DNA of 60,562 nt from positions 1 through 60,562 of the IMG/VR virus record IMGVR_UViG_3300042938_001279, one strand, 5' to 3'. Source of the DNA: a virus. Taxonomy: Duplodnaviria > Caudoviricetes. A program made the translations under genes and the position numbers. The notes beneath the pieces are model-generated. The model searched no databases. It saw nothing but the letters and a program-made list of their open reading frames with translations, and was not told the origin of the DNA. Below, piece after piece: positions 11,800 through 53,777 of this stretch; position 1 is the first letter of the stretch, and every line of letters begins with the position of its first letter.

Positions 11800-12086
11800 A
11801 TGTTCTGGGCTGGTTTTTCACTACCATCGGTGCGGTGGTGACGACGCTGACGCTATTGGGATTGATGAGCATCTTGATTGGATGTGCGTGCGATGCCATC
11901 GCTATCAGGATTCGAGACAAGCGGCATCTCTTCCTCACCCAGTGGGAGAAGAATGCCATGGCCAGTGCTGTCGGAATCTGCCGTCAGGCAGCGGAGGACA
12001 CACGCTCCAACGGCCCGGACTTCGACGGGGTGGAGCACGATCAGGTGGCGACGACGCTTGAAGCTATCCTCGCAAGGAGCAAGTGA
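11790..12086 (+). CDS. membrane-anchored hypothetical protein
   Basis: N-terminal TM segment, AAGGA RBS. Confidence 0.65.
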   Translation: MSMNVLGWFFTTIGAVVTTLTLLGLMSILIGCACDAIAIRIRDKRHLFLTQWEKNAMASAVGICRQAAEDTRSNGPDFDGVEHDQVATTLEAILARSK

Positions 12087-13021
12087 TGCCCAAAGTCTAC
12101 GGATACACGAGAGCCAGCACGGGAAGCCAGTCGCTGACGTTTGACGTTCAGCAGGCTGCGATCAAGCGGTACTTCAAGGAGAAGCTGGAGCCGATTGGGT
12201 ACGAATGGGGTGCCATGTTCGAGGACAAGGCAGTCTCTGGCGGCAAGCCATTCACCGACCGGCCCGAGGGGCGGAAGCTGTGGGTGGTGTGCCAGCCCAA
12301 GGATGCCGTGCTGTGGATGAAGATCGACCGGGCTTTCCGGTCAGTGAAGGACGGCGCCAACGTGCTGTCCCTGTTCCGTGAGCGGGGCGTATCGATCCAC
12401 TCCATCGACATCGGGCTGGACACCAGCACTCCGATGGGTGAGTTCACCATGCACCTGCTCATCCTGCTGGCCCAACTGGAGCGGAGCTGGATCAGCAGCA
12501 GGACCAAGGAAGCGCTCGCTGCCCTGAAGGAAAGGGGGTACAAGAACCTGGGCAACAGCATCCCGGCTGGGTTCAAGCGGGTTGGCGGCACGAGGGACAG
12601 CGCCATCTACCCCGACATGAAGGAGAGAGAGATCATTGTCCTTGCCTATGAAGACTACATGGGAGGCGACAGTCTTGAGACCGTGTCCAACCGTCTCTTC
12701 TTCACTGGCAAGCGACGGCACAACGGCTCGGAGTTCAAGCCTGCGTGGCTGGCCTATGCCTTCCGCTGCTACCGGGCAGGGTGGCCGAAGGGACTGCGGT
12801 ACTTCCAGTTCAAGGCCGAGGTCAAAGAAAAGCTGAAGACCAAGCGACTCTCCAAGCTCAAGCTCCGCGACCTCGTGCAAGAAGAGTTCAGGTCAGGGTG
12901 CGTCGTTGACCGCACGCCTCAGTTTCTCAAGGATAGCGAACAGCCTCTTCTCGGTGTTCCTGAAGTCGAGACCAAACCTCCTGCCGAGGGATCGGATGCT
13001 GGCCCCCTCAAAGACGTATGA
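12083..13021 (+). CDS. serine recombinase (resolvase-type catalytic domain + DNA-binding region)
   Basis: YGYTRAS catalytic motif, EDKAVSG, RPEG, KIDRAFRS, AQLER..ISSRTKEAL. Confidence 0.92.
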   Translation: MMPKVYGYTRASTGSQSLTFDVQQAAIKRYFKEKLEPIGYEWGAMFEDKAVSGGKPFTDRPEGRKLWVVCQPKDAVLWMKIDRAFRSVKDGANVLSLFRERGVSIHSIDIGLDTSTPMGEFTMHLLILLAQLERSWISSRTKEALAALKERGYKNLGNSIPAGFKRVGGTRDSAIYPDMKEREIIVLAYEDYMGGDSLETVSNRLFFTGKRRHNGSEFKPAWLAYAFRCYRAGWPKGLRYFQFKAEVKEKLKTKRLSKLKLRDLVQEEFRSGCVVDRTPQFLKDSEQPLLGVPEVETKPPAEGSDAGPLKDV

Positions 13022-13623: not shown

Positions 13624-13916
13624 GGCATTACCCCACGAACGGACTGGCAGTAGGCCTGGATTTTTTCACGCGCGCGGGCGGGATCAACGTCGAGAGCTTC
13701 GCAGCAATCCTCGAACGTGACTAGCCCAACTCCACCCTCCAGCCATCTCCTAGCTGCTTCTCTCTGATAGATCATCTCCTTGTCTATCTTCCTTCCGTTC
13801 TTGCTTTCCCATCTACTGCATCTGTCGGCAGAACGTACCACCGCTTGGAGCATTACCCCAACACACAGGTAATGCCATGCCCCAAGAACGGTTGCGTCTT
13901 CTATGGTTCGCGTCAA
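13620..13916 (-). CDS. conserved phage hypothetical protein (putative regulator)
   Basis: LQAV...AARRWL...FEDCCEALDVDP pattern, common next to phage late regulators. Confidence 0.65.
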   Translation of the reverse strand: MTRTIEDATVLGAWHYLCVGVMLQAVVRSADRCSRWESKNGRKIDKEMIYQREAARRWLEGGVGLVTFEDCCEALDVDPARAREKIQAYCQSVRGVMP

Positions 13917-14368
13917 GCCTCAAGCTCCGCGATCATGAGTAGTCGGCAGATGGCGTTGGCAATGTGGTCTTCGCTGGTGTCGCCCCGCTGGTAGTCGAAG
14001 ACGTGCTTGATGGCGTGGTTGATGCACACCTCGATCGGGATTCCCTCTCTCCAGTTGTTCTCGCCATGAACCACGGCACCGCGGCCCATGGCGATAGCGG
14101 CACGGCGAAGGCCTTTGACGGGCAGGAGATCGTACCTCTCTGGGACTGCGGTGGCTGTGGCACCAGACGGAAACTGCTGGAGGACGCTGACCGCGGAGAT
14201 GGCGCTCTCGCTGAAGGCCTTCCTCAGGCTGTCCTTGAGCTGGTCGCATCTGAACTGGCCGATGAGGACGGCGGCTCGATCGTCGGATCGGACGGCTCTG
14301 GGGGCATCGGCTGGGAAAGGACGGCGAGGAACCTCGGCATATCCGCTAGCCGGAAAGTCACCAGCCAT
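13913..14368 (-). CDS. dATP/dGTP diphosphohydrolase-like (DUF5664) protein
   Basis: RYDLLP...GAVVHGENNWREG...HAIKH...EDHIANAIC. AGGAG RBS before ATG at 14368. Confidence 0.8.
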   Translation of the reverse strand: MAGDFPASGYAEVPRRPFPADAPRAVRSDDRAAVLIGQFRCDQLKDSLRKAFSESAISAVSVLQQFPSGATATAVPERYDLLPVKGLRRAAIAMGRGAVVHGENNWREGIPIEVCINHAIKHVFDYQRGDTSEDHIANAICRLLMIAELEA

Positions 14369-14637
14369 TCCGTTCTGCTCCTGCGATGGAACACCACCGG
14401 CAACTTGCCCTTGCACTGAGAGACTGCCTTCTTCATGGCAGCCACCACGTTCAATGCCTCCACCCACTTGCATTCGGCAAACAGGTCCGGGAGATGAGCA
14501 ACCCGTACATCCTCGTCCCCCGCATTGCCGCACCTCTGCTGAGTTCTCTCGACTTCCTTCCATCCCATCACCTCTTTCATCTTGTCCCTAAGGTCTCGTT
14601 CACCCCTCGCGCCTTTTTCTCTTTCATACTTTCCCAT
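14224..14637 (-). CDS. PD-(D/E)XK Holliday-junction resolvase-like nuclease
   Basis: REKGARGER, D...ECK and PVVFHRR..EWLV motifs. Confidence 0.85.
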   Translation of the reverse strand: MGKYEREKGARGERDLRDKMKEVMGWKEVERTQQRCGNAGDEDVRVAHLPDLFAECKWVEALNVVAAMKKAVSQCKGKLPVVFHRRSRTEWLVTFRLADMPRFLAVLSQPMPPEPSDPTIEPPSSSASSDATSSRTA

Positions 14638-14661: not shown

Positions 14662-14928
14662 TTAGCCAGCCACCACTGACCGGAGGTACCCTTCGCTGCC
14701 ATGCCTATCAGTTCTCTCGTTGAAGATAGCGTTTTGGTATTCCAGTGAAGGGACATGAGCCAGCCGCTCAATGATGCAGAGCAAGTCTCTCATGAGAAGA
14801 GCTTCGGTGCTGTGAGGGTGGCTGGTCATCACGAATTGCTTGGCCTGGAGAACAGCACGCTTCTCGTCAATGGTCCTGTTCGTCGCCGCTCTTTTGCTAT
14901 CTGCTGGCATTTGCCACCCTTTCGTCAC
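14662..14928 (-). CDS. hypothetical protein
   Basis: Operon tiling. Confidence 0.6.
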   Translation of the reverse strand: MTKGWQMPADSKRAATNRTIDEKRAVLQAKQFVMTSHPHSTEALLMRDLLCIIERLAHVPSLEYQNAIFNERTDRHGSEGYLRSVVAG

Positions 14929-15277
14929 GGGCCCACTGCGGCAGAGGCTTCGGGTCTTCCTTCAGCCCCACCCTGTGCAAGAGCTTGGCAAGAAACTCAA
15001 GGTCAAGCTCTCCGTCTTCTTCCAGCTTTGCCTGAAGGACATGGCCAAGGCTCAGGTTTCGTTGGCCCCCGATGTGGTACCCGTCATGGCACTCGTTGCA
15101 GACGCAGATTAAGTTGCGATGGTCGTGGTAGTCCAGACCACGGCGCCCGACGATGTGATGCAGGTGGAGCGCTCGACCGAACCGCCCTTTGCGCCACCAG
15201 CACACTGCACACCGGCAGCAAAGGTCTGCGTAGACCGCGAGCTGCCGGTTTGTCCTGTCTCGCTTCTTGCTCACCAT
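14897..15277 (-). CDS. HNH endonuclease
   Basis: CAVC...LHLHHI...NLICVCNECHDGYH. Confidence 0.85.
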   Translation of the reverse strand: MVSKKRDRTNRQLAVYADLCCRCAVCWWRKGRFGRALHLHHIVGRRGLDYHDHRNLICVCNECHDGYHIGGQRNLSLGHVLQAKLEEDGELDLEFLAKLLHRVGLKEDPKPLPQWARDERVANASR

Positions 15278-15615
15278 CAAAAGATTTCTCCGCCCGAACT
15301 GTCGGGCTTCCACTGAAGCCATCCGCCGTTGTCGAGCCGGTTGCCTTCCTTGTCTCGACGCCTCGGGTAAAGAACCCCAGTGTCTGTTTGCTTGCTGATC
15401 GTCAGCGTAGCATTGCACTCCCGGCACTTGATCTCGTGGAAGGTGTACTTGCCGTTCTTGCGGGTGATGAAGGCTGTGTCGTCCAGCCCGCAAGCTCCGC
15501 ACGTCGTGCTTCCGAAAGCCTCGCCAGCATGCGAGAGTTCCTCGAAGGCTTCCTCGATGGTCTTACCTTCGACCGTGACTTCGATCTTTCCGATCTTGTG
15601 CGTGACTCGTATCAT
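15277..15615 (-). CDS. Zn-ribbon hypothetical protein (112 aa)
   Basis: CGAC and CREC motifs, GGAG RBS. Directly follows the structured RNA candidate. Confidence 0.75.
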   Translation of the reverse strand: MIRVTHKIGKIEVTVEGKTIEEAFEELSHAGEAFGSTTCGACGLDDTAFITRKNGKYTFHEIKCRECNATLTISKQTDTGVLYPRRRDKEGNRLDNGGWLQWKPDSSGGEIF

Positions 15616-15634
15616 GTTCCATTGTCTCCGTTGT

Positions 15635-15936
15635 GTGTCATAGCTTCACTCTTAGAAACTACCCTAGACCCCATCCCTGCTGAAGGAGGAGGCGGCTCCT
15701 ACTTCAGGGTACCATTACCAGGACCGACCCCCTGCCTTATTGAGGGGTTCCTTCAGCGTGTGACCGGGGCGTTGGGGTTTGAATCTCAGCCACATCTACC
15801 AGTGGCCCGTTGCCCGGATTTCGTGCTGGGGTCGGGAGACTTGCGAGGACTAGCCTCTCCTGCATGGGCAGGCGTTGTTTAGGCTCGGGAGGTTTTGATT
15901 TCTAAAGCGGTGGTCCGTCCGAGGAATCCATGACAC
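15635..15936 (-). ncRNA. candidate large structured non-coding RNA (~300 nt)
   Basis: Gene-free gap with four nested long-range helices pairing the 5' and 3' ends, plus local hairpins. See findings. Confidence 0.6.
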
Positions 15937-15960
15937 CGCGTCTCCAGCATAAGGGGCCTG

Positions 15961-16464
15961 TCAATATGGTGGCAGTAGATTCTCCATCTTACGCAGATTA
16001 ACCTGGGGAACGAACCAGGAAGGTCGCCTGCTGCCCGGGTCCCACTTCCACCTCTCCTGCTTCGCCTCAAGCCCGGAGAGCCATCCACGCAGGATGACCC
16101 TCCCGTCCAGCCCAACGCACGCCAGAACGAAACGTCGCTCGTCTGCGTCGTTGTTTCGGACGATGAGACTCCCGTCCTTCAGGGCTGTGGCCCGGACCTC
16201 GAACTCCCCGCAGTCCGGGATCGAGTGGAAGGTGTTGACCGAGTCCCCGCCGTAGACCCCGATCCACTTGGCGAAAGCCCGCTCACCGATGGCGCCAACC
16301 AGCTCCTCGTCTATGCGAGTTCGGATGGGCCGATCGTAGGTGGTGCGGTGGTTGAGCCCCTGCGCCTCTGATGCGGTGATCCGCTGGATGGCAGTGAAGA
16401 GGCAGGCCATGACCTCTTGGGTAGAGATGGACACGACAGTCGCCTGGCTTTCGGCAGAGATCAA
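15961..16464 (-). CDS. hypothetical protein, possibly a PD-(D/E)XK-like nuclease
   Basis: GAIGERAFA...PDCGEFEVRAT...RGW. TTG start overlaps the upstream stop. Confidence 0.6.
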   Translation of the reverse strand: MISAESQATVVSISTQEVMACLFTAIQRITASEAQGLNHRTTYDRPIRTRIDEELVGAIGERAFAKWIGVYGGDSVNTFHSIPDCGEFEVRATALKDGSLIVRNNDADERRFVLACVGLDGRVILRGWLSGLEAKQERWKWDPGSRRPSWFVPQVNLRKMENLLPPY

Positions 16465-16883
16465 CCGTCCACCCCCTTCGCCTTGACCCCGGAGACGGCG
16501 AGAGCTGCTAGCCACTGCTCGTCTCGTGTCTTTGTCGCCTCGTTCCACCCCGTCCAAAAGGCGCTGCCAGTGTTGTAGATGCGATGCGGCACTTCCACTT
16601 CCGGCGCCTTGCTGCTGGCGAGGATGTTCTCAAGTTCCTGAGCAACGCTGTAGGACCAATTTGCCTTGGCAAGATTCGCGGCGTGCTGAATCGAGCCCCG
16701 CTCCTCCGCCGTCAACCAGCCGCTCGTGGGCTGCGGGGCTGCCGCGAAGGCCTGAGCAATCGCCTCCTCCAAAGTCGGCAGCGGGCCAGTCCGCTTGTCT
16801 TCTGCCGCGCGGACGACGATATCGCGGGCCGAATCGCTGCACCACGGGTGGCAGTTGCAGTCCTCGTATTGGTAGCCGTTCAT
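16461..16883 (-). CDS. hypothetical protein
   Basis: GGAGGA RBS, coupled. Confidence 0.7.
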   Translation of the reverse strand: MNGYQYEDCNCHPWCSDSARDIVVRAAEDKRTGPLPTLEEAIAQAFAAAPQPTSGWLTAEERGSIQHAANLAKANWSYSVAQELENILASSKAPEVEVPHRIYNTGSAFWTGWNEATKTRDEQWLAALAVSGVKAKGVDG

Positions 16884-37697: not shown

Positions 37698-40022
37698 TCA
37701 CCCCGTGTAGCAGATGTTGTTGACAAACGGGCTGACGCGATAGTTCGTCGTCACCTGAGAGCCAGCCGAGACGAACTTATTGGCGCCGTAGGCTAGACCG
37801 TTCCATGCCGGAACCGCATTGGACTGGATCGGCATGACGGTGTTCCGAATGGTCCAGGTCACGCCGTCCGGGCTGGTGATGCAGGTTGCCTGTCCGTTGA
37901 GAGCCATGAAAAGGCCATTGCCGTAGGCCAAGCCCCTCCATTCCGACGAGGTTCCAATCGTCCTTGCAGTCCAGGCTGTGCCGTTCGTGCTGGTGTAGGC
38001 CGTCCCTCCACCGTAGGGCACCATGACGTAGAGCGAGCCGCTGTATGCGACCTCGAACGGGGCCGCTGCCGCAGTCCCGAAGTAGAAGTCTGCGCCCGCC
38101 AGCGTGACCTTGGTCCAGACGGCACCGTCCGTGGACGAATAGAAAAAGCCGTCCGTGAGTCTGGCAAACCACCGGCCGCCTGAGAACCTGATTTCTGCGT
38201 TGTTCCAGGCGGTGTTGTTCGTTGCCCCCGAGATGCTCGTGGAAATGGCAGTGAGCTGCCCGTTGAAAAACTGCCACAGGGCGCCAGAGGGGGCAGTGAC
38301 TGCGCCCGCCCACCCAGGGTCCGAAGGCCTTGCCGTGATGAGAAAGCGGTTCACTCCGAAGTCATAAGACCGAGCCTCGGAGAAACCCGGGGTTCCAGCC
38401 GACCACACAGGCGCCGCTACACCCCAGGTCATTCCATCGATCGAAGTCCCGACAGACATTGAGTTCCTTCCCAGAACCCAGCAGTCGTTGATTGCGAGGA
38501 ACAGCCCGCCGCCACGAGCAATCCGGCTGAACCGAGACGACACTGGGACCGGAGAAGGGCACGCCTGCCACGCAACCCCGTCCACGGAGTACGAATACCC
38601 GGTCGTGAACAGGCCTCCTGAAATGTCGCCGTCTGGGGCGTAGCTCAGGGCACCAAGCCTGCTGTAGCCAGAGGTATTCCACGGGTAATCTGTGGTCCCG
38701 GAGGCGAGCTTCCAGGACGATCCGTTGACCGTTGGCGCAGACCCAACAGTGACCGTAGCGATCTGGCTGAAGACTGTGCCAACGCTGCTGGTCGTGGCGG
38801 TGTTGCGATACCTGGCGCCGTTGTCTCCCGTGGAGACCGCGACCGTGAGCGATGTCGAGTTTGCTCCCGAGATTGCAGCCCAAGTCGAGCCACCGGCAGC
38901 CATCTTCTGCCAGGCGTAGACGATAGGGCTCTCGGTGGACTGAGCGATTGCCGTGAGCGTGATCGTGGCGCCCGATGTGACGGTGGTGTCGGCGGGGTTG
39001 GTCGTGAAGACCGTGGACTGCTGCGTGGCTGCGGCACTTGGAAGAACGAGGTTCAGCACGAAGTTTGGTGAAGTGCCAGTGATCGATGCAGAGGCTGCGG
39101 CTCCGGTCGAGACAGTGCCGATGGTCAGGGTTGGGCTCGGGCCAGCGGGCCCTTGGCTTCCGGCCACGCCTTGCAGACCCGGGATTCCCTGCGACCCGGT
39201 CGGACCCTGGGCTCCAGCCACTCCGGCGGCACCGGCCGGACCCACTGGGCCACGAAGCTGCCCGATGTCGAGCCAGCCGTTGGCCTGCATGGTGTTTGAG
39301 GTGGAGCCGCCGACGTAGAGGAAGCCGTCCCCGGTGGCACCGGCAGACGGGGTTCCAGACGGGATGGTCGTTCCAAGAATCCAGAGGTCACCTAAGGCCG
39401 GAGATGAGGCGGGAGGCCAGACCGTGATGATGCCGCGAATGACAGCAGCGGCTCCTCTTTCTCCCTGGGGTCCGGCCGCTCCAGTCGGGCCCGCCACGCC
39501 TTGGGGTCCCGCTGGACCAGCACTGCCCGTGTCGCCCTTGGGGAGGACGAGGCTGAGCGTGAGGTTCGGAGCGGTGCCCGAGAACGTGGCTGACGGCGTG
39601 GTCCCAGAGGTCACAGTGCCGATCGTGATTGCCGTGGCAGCCCCAGCAACGCCAGACTCGCCCTTGGGAAGGACCAGGTTCAAGATGGGGTTTTCTGCCG
39701 TCCCGGTGATGGTCGCACTGGCGGCCGTACCCTGAGACACAGAGCCGATGCTGATGGGGGCCGCGGAGCCGGGGTCTCCCTTTGGGCCAGCGGGGCCATC
39801 CGGGCCAGCCGGGCCGACGCTACCGGCCGGGCCAGCGATGCCAGGCAGGCCGCGGTCGGACTTGTAGGGCAGGTTGTTCCAGGTGGTGGTGCCGTCGCCC
39901 AGCTTGAAGCGGCCGGTGTCCTCCTCAACGCCAAACTCGGCACTGCCGAGCACCGGGTTGTCGAAGACCCACTCCATGGAGGTTCCGCGCCGAAGCAGGA
40001 TTTGCTGGTAGATCGTTGGCAT
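37698..40022 (-). CDS. tail fibre: Mtd_N/hyaluronidase-type N-terminus, collagen repeats, Ig-like domain, BNR-like propeller
   Basis: LRRGT..EW...NPVL..GE.GVE.DT..FK.GDG...W..LPY-type motif, GPAG repeats, YAWQK/RYR Ig, S.DG..W repeats. Confidence 0.85.
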   Translation of the reverse strand: MPTIYQQILLRRGTSMEWVFDNPVLGSAEFGVEEDTGRFKLGDGTTTWNNLPYKSDRGLPGIAGPAGSVGPAGPDGPAGPKGDPGSAAPISIGSVSQGTAASATITGTAENPILNLVLPKGESGVAGAATAITIGTVTSGTTPSATFSGTAPNLTLSLVLPKGDTGSAGPAGPQGVAGPTGAAGPQGERGAAAVIRGIITVWPPASSPALGDLWILGTTIPSGTPSAGATGDGFLYVGGSTSNTMQANGWLDIGQLRGPVGPAGAAGVAGAQGPTGSQGIPGLQGVAGSQGPAGPSPTLTIGTVSTGAAASASITGTSPNFVLNLVLPSAAATQQSTVFTTNPADTTVTSGATITLTAIAQSTESPIVYAWQKMAAGGSTWAAISGANSTSLTVAVSTGDNGARYRNTATTSSVGTVFSQIATVTVGSAPTVNGSSWKLASGTTDYPWNTSGYSRLGALSYAPDGDISGGLFTTGYSYSVDGVAWQACPSPVPVSSRFSRIARGGGLFLAINDCWVLGRNSMSVGTSIDGMTWGVAAPVWSAGTPGFSEARSYDFGVNRFLITARPSDPGWAGAVTAPSGALWQFFNGQLTAISTSISGATNNTAWNNAEIRFSGGRWFARLTDGFFYSSTDGAVWTKVTLAGADFYFGTAAAAPFEVAYSGSLYVMVPYGGGTAYTSTNGTAWTARTIGTSSEWRGLAYGNGLFMALNGQATCITSPDGVTWTIRNTVMPIQSNAVPAWNGLAYGANKFVSAGSQVTTNYRVSPFVNNICYTG

Positions 40023-53679: not shown

Positions 53680-53704
53680 CGATTGTCTCCTCGTGTCGCT
53701 TCAG

Positions 53705-53777
53705 TGGGGGCGGCCGGACTCGAACCGGCGGCCTCCTGGTTATGAGCCAGGTGAGCTACCAACTGCTCCACGCCCCG
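53705..53777 (-). tRNA. tRNA-Met(CAT), initiator-like
   Basis: Cloverleaf CGGGGCG-TG-GAGC/GCTC-CCTGG CTCATAA CCAGG-GCCGG TTCGAGT CCGGC-CGCCCCC-A. C1:C72 mismatch, A11-U24 pair, CCA not encoded. Confidence 0.93.

Follow-up and report, generated by a model that had tools for sequence, protein, structure and literature searches.

RNAs that combine a doubly pseudoknotted fold with strong covariation are usually ribozymes, scaffolds of ribonucleoproteins (RNPs) or sensors of ligands or proteins, and new ones are rare. The HK022 putL/putR RNAs and EAR are processive-antitermination RNAs that are located close to the promoter or within an operon and act in cis whatever gene follows, the put RNAs consisting of two stem-loops of ∼70 nt. 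The core of group I introns is formed by the crossing helices P3 and P7 around a P4–P6 domain, P7 being the G-binding helix, and HEARO, which is among the Rfam families, has as the partner of the HEARO/omega-RNA the IscB protein of roughly 400–500 amino acids with RuvC and HNH domains. In the accessible portions of the published accounts, the leader of the phage T4 gene 32 mRNA is described as carrying a 5′ pseudoknot that serves as the operator through which the Zn-binding single-stranded DNA-binding protein (SSB) gp32 represses its own translation (PMC535899, PMC10690425), and the ‘DNAVirus_X’ csRNAs of an IMG/VR survey are given as 29–151 nt long, with an average of 67 nt (PMC10690425). Here we analyse a conserved element on the minus strand of the IMG/VR virus record IMGVR_UViG_3300042938_001279 (60,562 nt, the whole of which is referred to as the window), a complete 60.6 kb genome with direct terminal repeats. 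As judged from sequence comparison, the element is a new RNA family which matches no catalogued RNA family and which occurs in a group of roughly 60-kb uncultured temperate-type phages. A full-text literature search found no paper describing the element, the supplementary lists of the csRNA survey being outside its scope.

The element lies in a gap of 345 nt (15616–15960) between two minus-strand open reading frames (ORFs), one ending at 15961 and the other starting at 15615, and all features given below are on the minus strand unless stated otherwise. The initial annotation had read this gap as gene-free and as specifying a candidate novel structured RNA on the transcribed strand. Both statements held: the gap bounded by the two ORFs is non-coding, a conserved element of ∼280 nt is contained in it, and the gap very probably represents a real, novel structured RNA. 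The whole conserved element (15662..15939, ∼278 nt) extends from the first base of helix H1 to just past a G-rich tail, its bounds being set by homology.

Relatives of the element are designated by L-numbers, which stand for related loci. Two relatives were found first. A metagenome pattern scan gave three true loci together with one chance match, L015, which lies inside a coding region; L013, L014 and the much more diverged L016 were added by pattern scans. In L016 the element directly precedes an HNH gene 36% identical to that of the window. An alignment of this HNH subfamily was used as a search handle and retrieved 61 viral loci, for which reason an association of HNH with the element cannot be judged. 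With an iterated nhmmer profile the element was detected in 19 of the 62 related viral loci (L016–L077), corresponding to ∼14 lineages, and always on the gene strand and upstream of the HNH gene. A covariance model of 183 positions, representing the 3′ domain of the element, recognized it in 18 of 64 sources at E < 0.001 and missed three of the nhmmer finds; as the alignment of divergent members by this model was poor, anchored tests comparing own with cross-lineage duplexes were used instead. Relaxed thresholds yielded no additional copies. Two pattern scans of 185,579 species-representative genomes gave no match, and no match was obtained in the phage GenBank collection either by blastn with 1 kb around the gap or by tblastn with the Zn-ribbon protein encoded downstream of it, the protein encoded upstream matching four distant records only. 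Compared with the relative L002, the gap core is 90–98% identical in 60-nt windows, the gap edges 57–68% and the genomes 77–81%.

The evidence for an RNA comes from the conservation of base pairing. In a plain MAFFT alignment of 13 distinct sequences, which was not fitted to structure, six helices (H1, PK1, H2, H3, H5 and H6) were scored: 86.4% of 398 cells were paired, as against 34–43% when the partners were slid by 1–3 columns, 16 of 33 pairs changed on both sides, and the covariation score was reached by none of 500 shuffles. H1 is formed by 15934..15939 and 15907..15912 (six pairs, three with two-sided changes, 93.6% of cells paired), and its loop contains the 5′ strand of PK1 (15919..15923), which pairs with 15884..15888 to give an H-type pseudoknot. 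Five of the eight pairs scored for PK1 had two-sided changes, the core pairs changing from CG to GC and from GC to CG, and the columns of the A-rich pseudoknot linker of the UAGAAAUCAAA type (15892..15906) are nearly invariant in alignment A6. Two hairpins with conserved loops follow, H2 (CCUGC-CCAU-GCAGG, 15859..15872; 95.4% paired, two of five pairs with two-sided changes) and H3 (GAGG-CUAGU-CCUC, 15845..15857; 100% paired, two of four pairs). The next arm (15764..15817), enclosed by the long-range helix H4, consists of H5 (15813–15817 with 15764–15768), with a change from GC to AU in three rows, and of H6 within it (GCCAC-N8-GUGGC, 15802–15806 with 15789–15793, loop 15794–15801; three of five pairs with two-sided changes); those alignment rows that lack this arm are misaligned there. 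H2, H3 and the GCCAC/GUGGC hairpin had already been listed in the initial annotation and are all supported by covariation.

MAFFT was unreliable in the 3′ half, and for each helix in this part the duplex energy with its own partner was compared with that obtained with partners from other lineages, in nine lineages. H4, an inverted repeat (I12) in which 15828..15835 pairs with 15724..15731, gave −11.9 kcal/mol with its own and −5.7 kcal/mol with foreign partners, the own partner being best in eight of the nine lineages. P4, formed by 15749..15757 and 15679..15687 (repeat I8), gave −12.4 versus −7.3 kcal/mol, with the own partner best in five of nine, and −11.3 versus −6.0 kcal/mol when the partner offered was limited to the 11 nt whose last position is the first base of the G-rich tail. 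As H4 and P4 cross, a second pseudoknot results. Between the P4 5′ strand and the H4 3′ strand lies the motif AUAAGGC (15734..15740), an anchor present in 13 of 13 main-type sequences. The region between the H4 3′ and P4 3′ strands (15688..15719) carries the small hairpins H8 (15716–15719 with 15708–15711) and H9i (15696–15699 with 15688–15691), both of which are present by eye with different sequences in other lineages, and a local CUGAAG copy (15702–15707) that makes the competing helix discussed below; P4 and H9i are contiguous on the strand they share. The G-rich 3′ tail of the CAGGGAUGGGGU type (15668..15679) is conserved in all main-type sequences. Taken as a whole, the predicted fold gives the impression of a static structure and not of a switch.

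A variant of the family is found in L020 (801–1130), L019 (992–1313) and L023 (314–632), where the 5′ pseudoknot, H4, H5 and H6 are kept, an extra hairpin is present at a GCRCGAA junction, and the 3′ domain is different and longer, with a GNRA-capped hairpin and a very G-rich end adjoining the start codon. L014, on the other hand, is ∼95% identical to the window over 515 aligned nt; between its positions 228–300 and window positions 15939–15870 the differences cluster in the H1 loop and the pseudoknot linker, with only two single changes elsewhere in the element, and this cluster may mark either a specificity region that is hypervariable or a patch acquired by recombination. Two helices proposed by RNAalifold from four close sequences (a long-range CCCG/UGGG helix and GAGGCU/AGUCUC) were rejected as they are not kept in L016.

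The fold described above differs from that of the initial annotation, in which four nested long-range helices, P1 to P4, had been drawn. All strings listed there are present in the window at the coordinates given, and a repeat finder recovered P1 (I3), P4 (I8) and a helix competing with P4 (I4), but P4 alone was retained in relatives. For P1, P2 and P3 the own partner was best in two, two and one of nine lineages, respectively, and no better than foreign partners. Among four distinct close relatives the four nested helices showed no compensatory change, and five of nine pairs in P1 and six of 12 in P2 departed only by unpaired cells in some row. The 5′ strand assigned to P3 instead pairs with 15724–15731, so that H4 replaces P3. 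The proposed search for covariation among homologues did reveal compensatory changes, but these support an architecture other than the one drawn, including two pseudoknots that the nested drawing lacked.

The only sizeable ORF in the gap, of 42 amino acids (15737–15865), loses its ATG in L002, and a 2-nt indel in this relative shifts all reading frames of the gap. On the plus strand, an ORF of 375 amino acids (14755–15882) is antisense to the HNH and Zn-ribbon genes and also covers most of the gap; it is broken by the same indel and was rejected as an artefact of high GC content, and a conserved small ORF or leader peptide was likewise rejected as no ORF of the gap is conserved. Since no ORF is conserved across the gap, as the initial annotation had expected of an RNA, the constraint acting on it is not protein-coding. 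In a search of the whole window with Rfam 15 at gathering scores, only a tRNA elsewhere was matched. On the gap itself, two chance matches were returned at E ≤ 10, scoring 15.1 and 12.9 bits where the gathering scores are 45 and 42, and 11 other family members gave eight sub-threshold matches, only one of which overlaps an element, and on the opposite strand. A tRNA or tmRNA was rejected, tRNA-Met at 53704–53777 being the sole ARAGORN prediction.

The RNA is likely to be specified by the gene (minus) strand, as favoured by its context. The promoter-like motif TTGACA-N7-TATGCT (15946..15964), which includes the −10-like TATGCT box noted previously just upstream of the structure and occurs once in the window, ends 6 nt before H1. 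This box is part of a conserved upstream motif, as TTGAC(A/T)-N6/7-TAnnn(T/C) ends 1–9 nt before the element in seven of 14 lineages, and 51 of the 59 occurrences in loci L016–L077 are on the gene strand, typically ahead of ORFs. Furthermore, GNRA tetraloops cap hairpins in L076 and in L020/L019/L023 when read on the gene strand, 24 of the 58 conserved unpaired columns are A compared with 24% A overall, and four U·G pairs in PK1 were counted for the gene strand. A broader form of the motif, TTGAC(A/T/G)-N5-8-TAnnn(T/C), is found repeatedly in front of ORFs in the phages of this group; its spacing, mostly 6–7 nt, is far too short for a sigma-70 −35/−10 pair. Plain TTGACA is depleted in the window, with nine observed against 25 expected.

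Across the loci the conserved gene order is helicase, (phrog_18407), element, (DUF3820-like), Zn-ribbon, (others), HNH and RusA-like resolvase; the element is invariably on the gene strand and separates the helicase block from the Zn-ribbon/HNH/resolvase genes that follow it. In the window, the upstream gene (15961..16557) encodes a 198-amino-acid protein of the phrog_18407 family. As positions 2–158 of the 162 in the profile are matched, almost from end to end, this gene is whole and is not interrupted by the element. The first listed downstream ORF starts within 35 nt of the element in nine of 14 lineages with no intervening motif, as far as unverified start codons allow, and scanning the minus strand of the gap for terminators yielded no candidate site. 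Based on the likely start at H1, the lack of a terminator, the close same-strand genes and the static-looking fold, we rank first, as a tentative preference drawn from context, a cis-acting, stably folded leader ahead of the downstream DNA-processing genes. Transcription would begin at the promoter-like motif just before H1 or read through from the helicase block, and, with no terminator of its own, the element would form the folded leader domain of a transcript with the genes for the Zn-ribbon protein, HNH and the RusA-like resolvase. Such a leader would set the amount of transcription or translation reaching these genes, possibly as a binding site for a protein or for the transcribing polymerase, in the manner of operator-type or put-type control, or as a shield of the 5′ end, and would not act by riboswitch-type switching between hairpin and anti-hairpin.

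Several observations weigh against this leader. In L052 and L033, two of the 14 lineages, a motif copy is located between the element and the next gene, and the L052 element, which lies at the 3′ end of the helicase gene, lacks its own motif; this arrangement is more in keeping with a self-contained RNA than with a leader. In several loci the Zn-ribbon gene is provided with a separate motif copy, and the next downstream gene varies by lineage, being that for the Zn-ribbon, a DUF3820-like, the HNH or unknown proteins. Moreover, 43 of the 62 related loci do not have the element though mostly sharing the same gene order, so that it is dispensable or replaceable. No U-tract follows the hairpin in any lineage, G-rich sequence being found there in all, and the competing helix shows no covariation. 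With regard to the strand, the minimum free energy (MFE) of the antisense was lower in eight of nine lineages, and wobble pairs in ungapped runs (two G·U versus eight A·C, counts that are few) lean to the opposite strand; the A·C cells in alignment A6 are mostly in misaligned rows. Finally, the folding energy, which the initial annotation had singled out for comparison with shuffled sequences, lies within the shuffled range: the MFE of the 345-nt gap is −111.7 versus −116.5 ± 5.9 kcal/mol (z +0.82), 80 of 100 shuffles being at least as stable, and the 276-nt core gave z +0.79, with 162 of 200 shuffles at least as stable (plus strand of the gap, z +0.40). We consider this failed single-sequence test to be overruled by the comparative evidence.

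The initial annotation had also suggested that the RNA acts together with the adjacent Zn-ribbon protein. An obligate pair of this kind is unlikely, as the two occur apart: the element has no Zn-ribbon gene next to it in L016, L033/34 and L051 (three of 14 lineages), many loci have the gene but not the element, and elsewhere another gene and the Zn-ribbon gene's own motif copy intervene between the two. Within the flanks examined no protein strictly co-occurred with the element.

Ranked second, nearly as likely as the leader and likewise possible rather than probable, is a stand-alone, trans-acting RNA, produced from its own promoter or cut from the operon transcript and independent of the following gene; it could form an RNP together with a protein of the phage or host, or be a decoy or a ribozyme. 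The static-looking, compact, doubly pseudoknotted fold with its conserved loops and no covarying expression platform would suit such an RNA, as would the variable downstream gene, the motif copies after the element in L052 and L033, and the patchy spread over 19 of the 62 loci that share the gene module. The same slot furthermore holds other long non-coding stretches in relatives without the element, one of them, in L055, between two motif copies. Against a stand-alone RNA stand the lack of a terminator or defined 3′ end, the closeness of the next ORF (at most 35 nt in nine of 14 lineages) and the lack of a strictly co-occurring protein in the flanks. That the element is a new class of large phage RNA working in its own right, as a ribozyme or RNP subunit in a recombination/replication module, appears rather unlikely. 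If true, it could be a structured activator or guide for a small HNH nuclease, or a primer RNA starting replication in polymerase-less temperate phages, and in related phages this slot would be occupied by RNAs that are not homologous to it but equivalent in function.

A replication primer or origin RNA of the ColE1 RNA II, T4 ori or mitochondrial CSB-II kind, which the initial annotation had raised, is quite unlikely. In this case the G-rich 3′ part of a promoter-driven transcript would form a persistent R-loop beside the helicase gene and prime DNA synthesis, and the folded body would control hybrid formation. The location in a module of exonuclease, Erf, helicase and resolvase genes, the promoter-like motif at the 5′ and the conserved G-rich tract at the 3′ end, and the variability of the slot among relatives are in line with this proposal, as is the absence of a named polymerase or primase from Pfam and PHROG scans of 24 window ORFs and one HNH frame overlapping the Zn-ribbon gene, which represent part of the proteome. 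Apart from location and the G-rich 3′ end, however, it finds no positive support. No AT-rich unwinding region is seen (the GC fraction of the 2-kb segment that contains the gap is 0.58, like that of the neighbouring segments, and that of the element 0.61), there are no iterons or repeats, the 43 related loci mentioned above do without the element, same-strand genes begin within tens of bases downstream, and selection on RNA pairing extends throughout the element, beyond its 3′ end.

A riboswitch- or attenuator-like switch is similarly improbable. P4 would here act as anti-terminator and an extended local hairpin as terminator or sequestor, with a ligand or protein choosing between them. The competing helix (I4) that had led to this suggestion does exist in the window, and a local CUGAA copy is also found in L016, L051, L076 and L033, but the local outer stem is not supported by covariation: the own partner gave −7.2 versus −6.3 kcal/mol with foreign partners and was best in one of nine lineages, whereas P4 on the same 3′ strand showed the clear difference reported above. 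In addition to the missing U-tract, P4 and the inner hairpin, being contiguous on the shared strand, can stack without competing. Highly improbable is a DNA-level element, an antisense transcript or a mosaic segment of recent exchange that would not function as RNA on the gene strand, to which the lower antisense MFE, the A·C versus G·U count and a terminator-like hairpin with T-run formed on the plus strand by the H2 complement would point, since compensatory changes in eight helices and ∼14 lineages rule out mere mosaic conservation, the motif orientation, GNRA loops and A-rich conserved unpaired columns fit the gene strand, and the spacer needed for an antisense promoter is the least conserved part.

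The gene directly downstream of the element (15277..15615) encodes a Cys4 Zn-ribbon protein of 112 amino acids, the acidic C-terminal tail of which ends in F. It was assigned to no family of Pfam or PHROG, a PDB sequence search gave nothing below E 0.1 and Foldseek against the PDB no fold match at E ≤ 0.001; its AlphaFold 2 model has a predicted local distance difference test (pLDDT) score of 82.8. In alignment A10 (12 members) the members of its family share four conserved Cys and a basic FPRRKDK stretch, and at the C-terminus they have an acidic tail whose last residues are PF or F, a tail which we take to resemble the C-terminal tip of bacterial SSB. The HNH endonuclease gene (14897..15277; 126 amino acids), whose start overlaps the Zn-ribbon stop, encodes a protein in which only the HNH domain was found; the Pfam HNH score of 21.2 bits is slightly below the cut-off of 21.4, PHROG HNH families were matched, and its homologues form 38 clusters. 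Farther upstream of the element, Pfam and PHROG identified a DEAD/ResIII helicase, an Erf-like annealing protein and an exonuclease. A serine recombinase/integrase at 12083–13021 on the plus strand suggests that the phage is temperate. The minus strand further encodes, at 13913–14563, a protein with the N-terminal domain of dATP/dGTP diphosphohydrolase and, at 37698–40022, a 774-amino-acid protein with an Mtd_N (major tropism determinant) domain and collagen repeats, which from its domain content may be the target of a diversity-generating retroelement.

The other non-coding stretches in the slot between helicase and Zn-ribbon genes, found in relatives without the element, measure 400–600 nt, and some are conserved among themselves. 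They are located in L055 (1167–1651, flanked by the two motif copies), L046 (∼1590–1700) and L025/L027 (∼780–1045), and also in L069, L065, L022 and L053. In L022 and L053 a similar hairpin-loop pseudoknot with a GAAA(U/C)CAAA linker was seen by eye; a profile of the 5′ pseudoknot domain did not reach these look-alikes. Such stretches suggest that the replication/recombination modules of uncultured phages repeatedly harbour a layer of RNAs that is still unexplored. New complex RNAs have repeatedly opened new biology, and the defined neighbourhood of this one (helicase, RNA, Zn-ribbon/HNH/resolvase), its likely transcription start and its ∼14 divergent variants make it amenable to experiment.

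When compared with known systems, the element resembles the HEARO/IscB omega-RNA in being a structured RNA of a few hundred nucleotides directly upstream of an ORF containing HNH, but no Rfam match was obtained and the HNH protein of the window has 126 amino acids and the HNH domain only. Group I introns and the GIR1 lariat-capping ribozyme share with it a size of ∼250 nt, crossing helices (H4/P4, cf. P3/P7) around a hairpin arm and, in this phage setting, a position upstream of an HNH gene, GIR1 being located beside homing-endonuclease genes. However, the Rfam models of introns and of GIR1 gave no match even at E ≤ 10, the crossing strands have a single arm between them, with no P6 equivalent or G-site recognized, and there is no exon context, the upstream gene being complete and the flanking genes varying by lineage. 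Likewise, ColE1 RNA II is a structured, promoter-driven RNA of a few hundred nucleotides that is in part G-rich and lies near replication genes; neither an antisense partner like RNA I nor an unwinding region or RNase H site was identified for the element, which is absent from most relatives. An intrinsic-terminator attenuator or riboswitch platform differs by its U-tract after the hairpin and by two conserved, mutually exclusive helices, neither of which was found here, and the put RNAs would resemble the element in their position and cis action only, with no evident likeness in sequence or structure.

With GOLLD, ROOL and the DNAVirus_X csRNAs, the last as portrayed in the accessible part of the survey, the element has in common that it is a covariation-supported RNA of unknown function from uncultured phages and from IMG/VR-type data. 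GOLLD and ROOL are in Rfam, yet do not match it, and a sub-motif of the element may be among the csRNAs, whose full lists lie outside this comparison. As regards the T4 gene 32 leader, again as far as it is described in the accessible portions of the accounts, the element has about four times its size and contains a further pseudoknotted domain; the Zn-ribbon protein, predicted from its sequence, has no family or fold match and its gene carries its own promoter-like motif in several loci; and the element is not always directly upstream of that gene, being found without it in L016, L033/34 and L051. What the two have in common is an H-type pseudoknot at the extreme 5′ end (H1 and PK1, supported by covariation) in a phage DNA-metabolism module, which in the window directly precedes the gene for a small Zn-ribbon protein with an acidic C-terminal tail.

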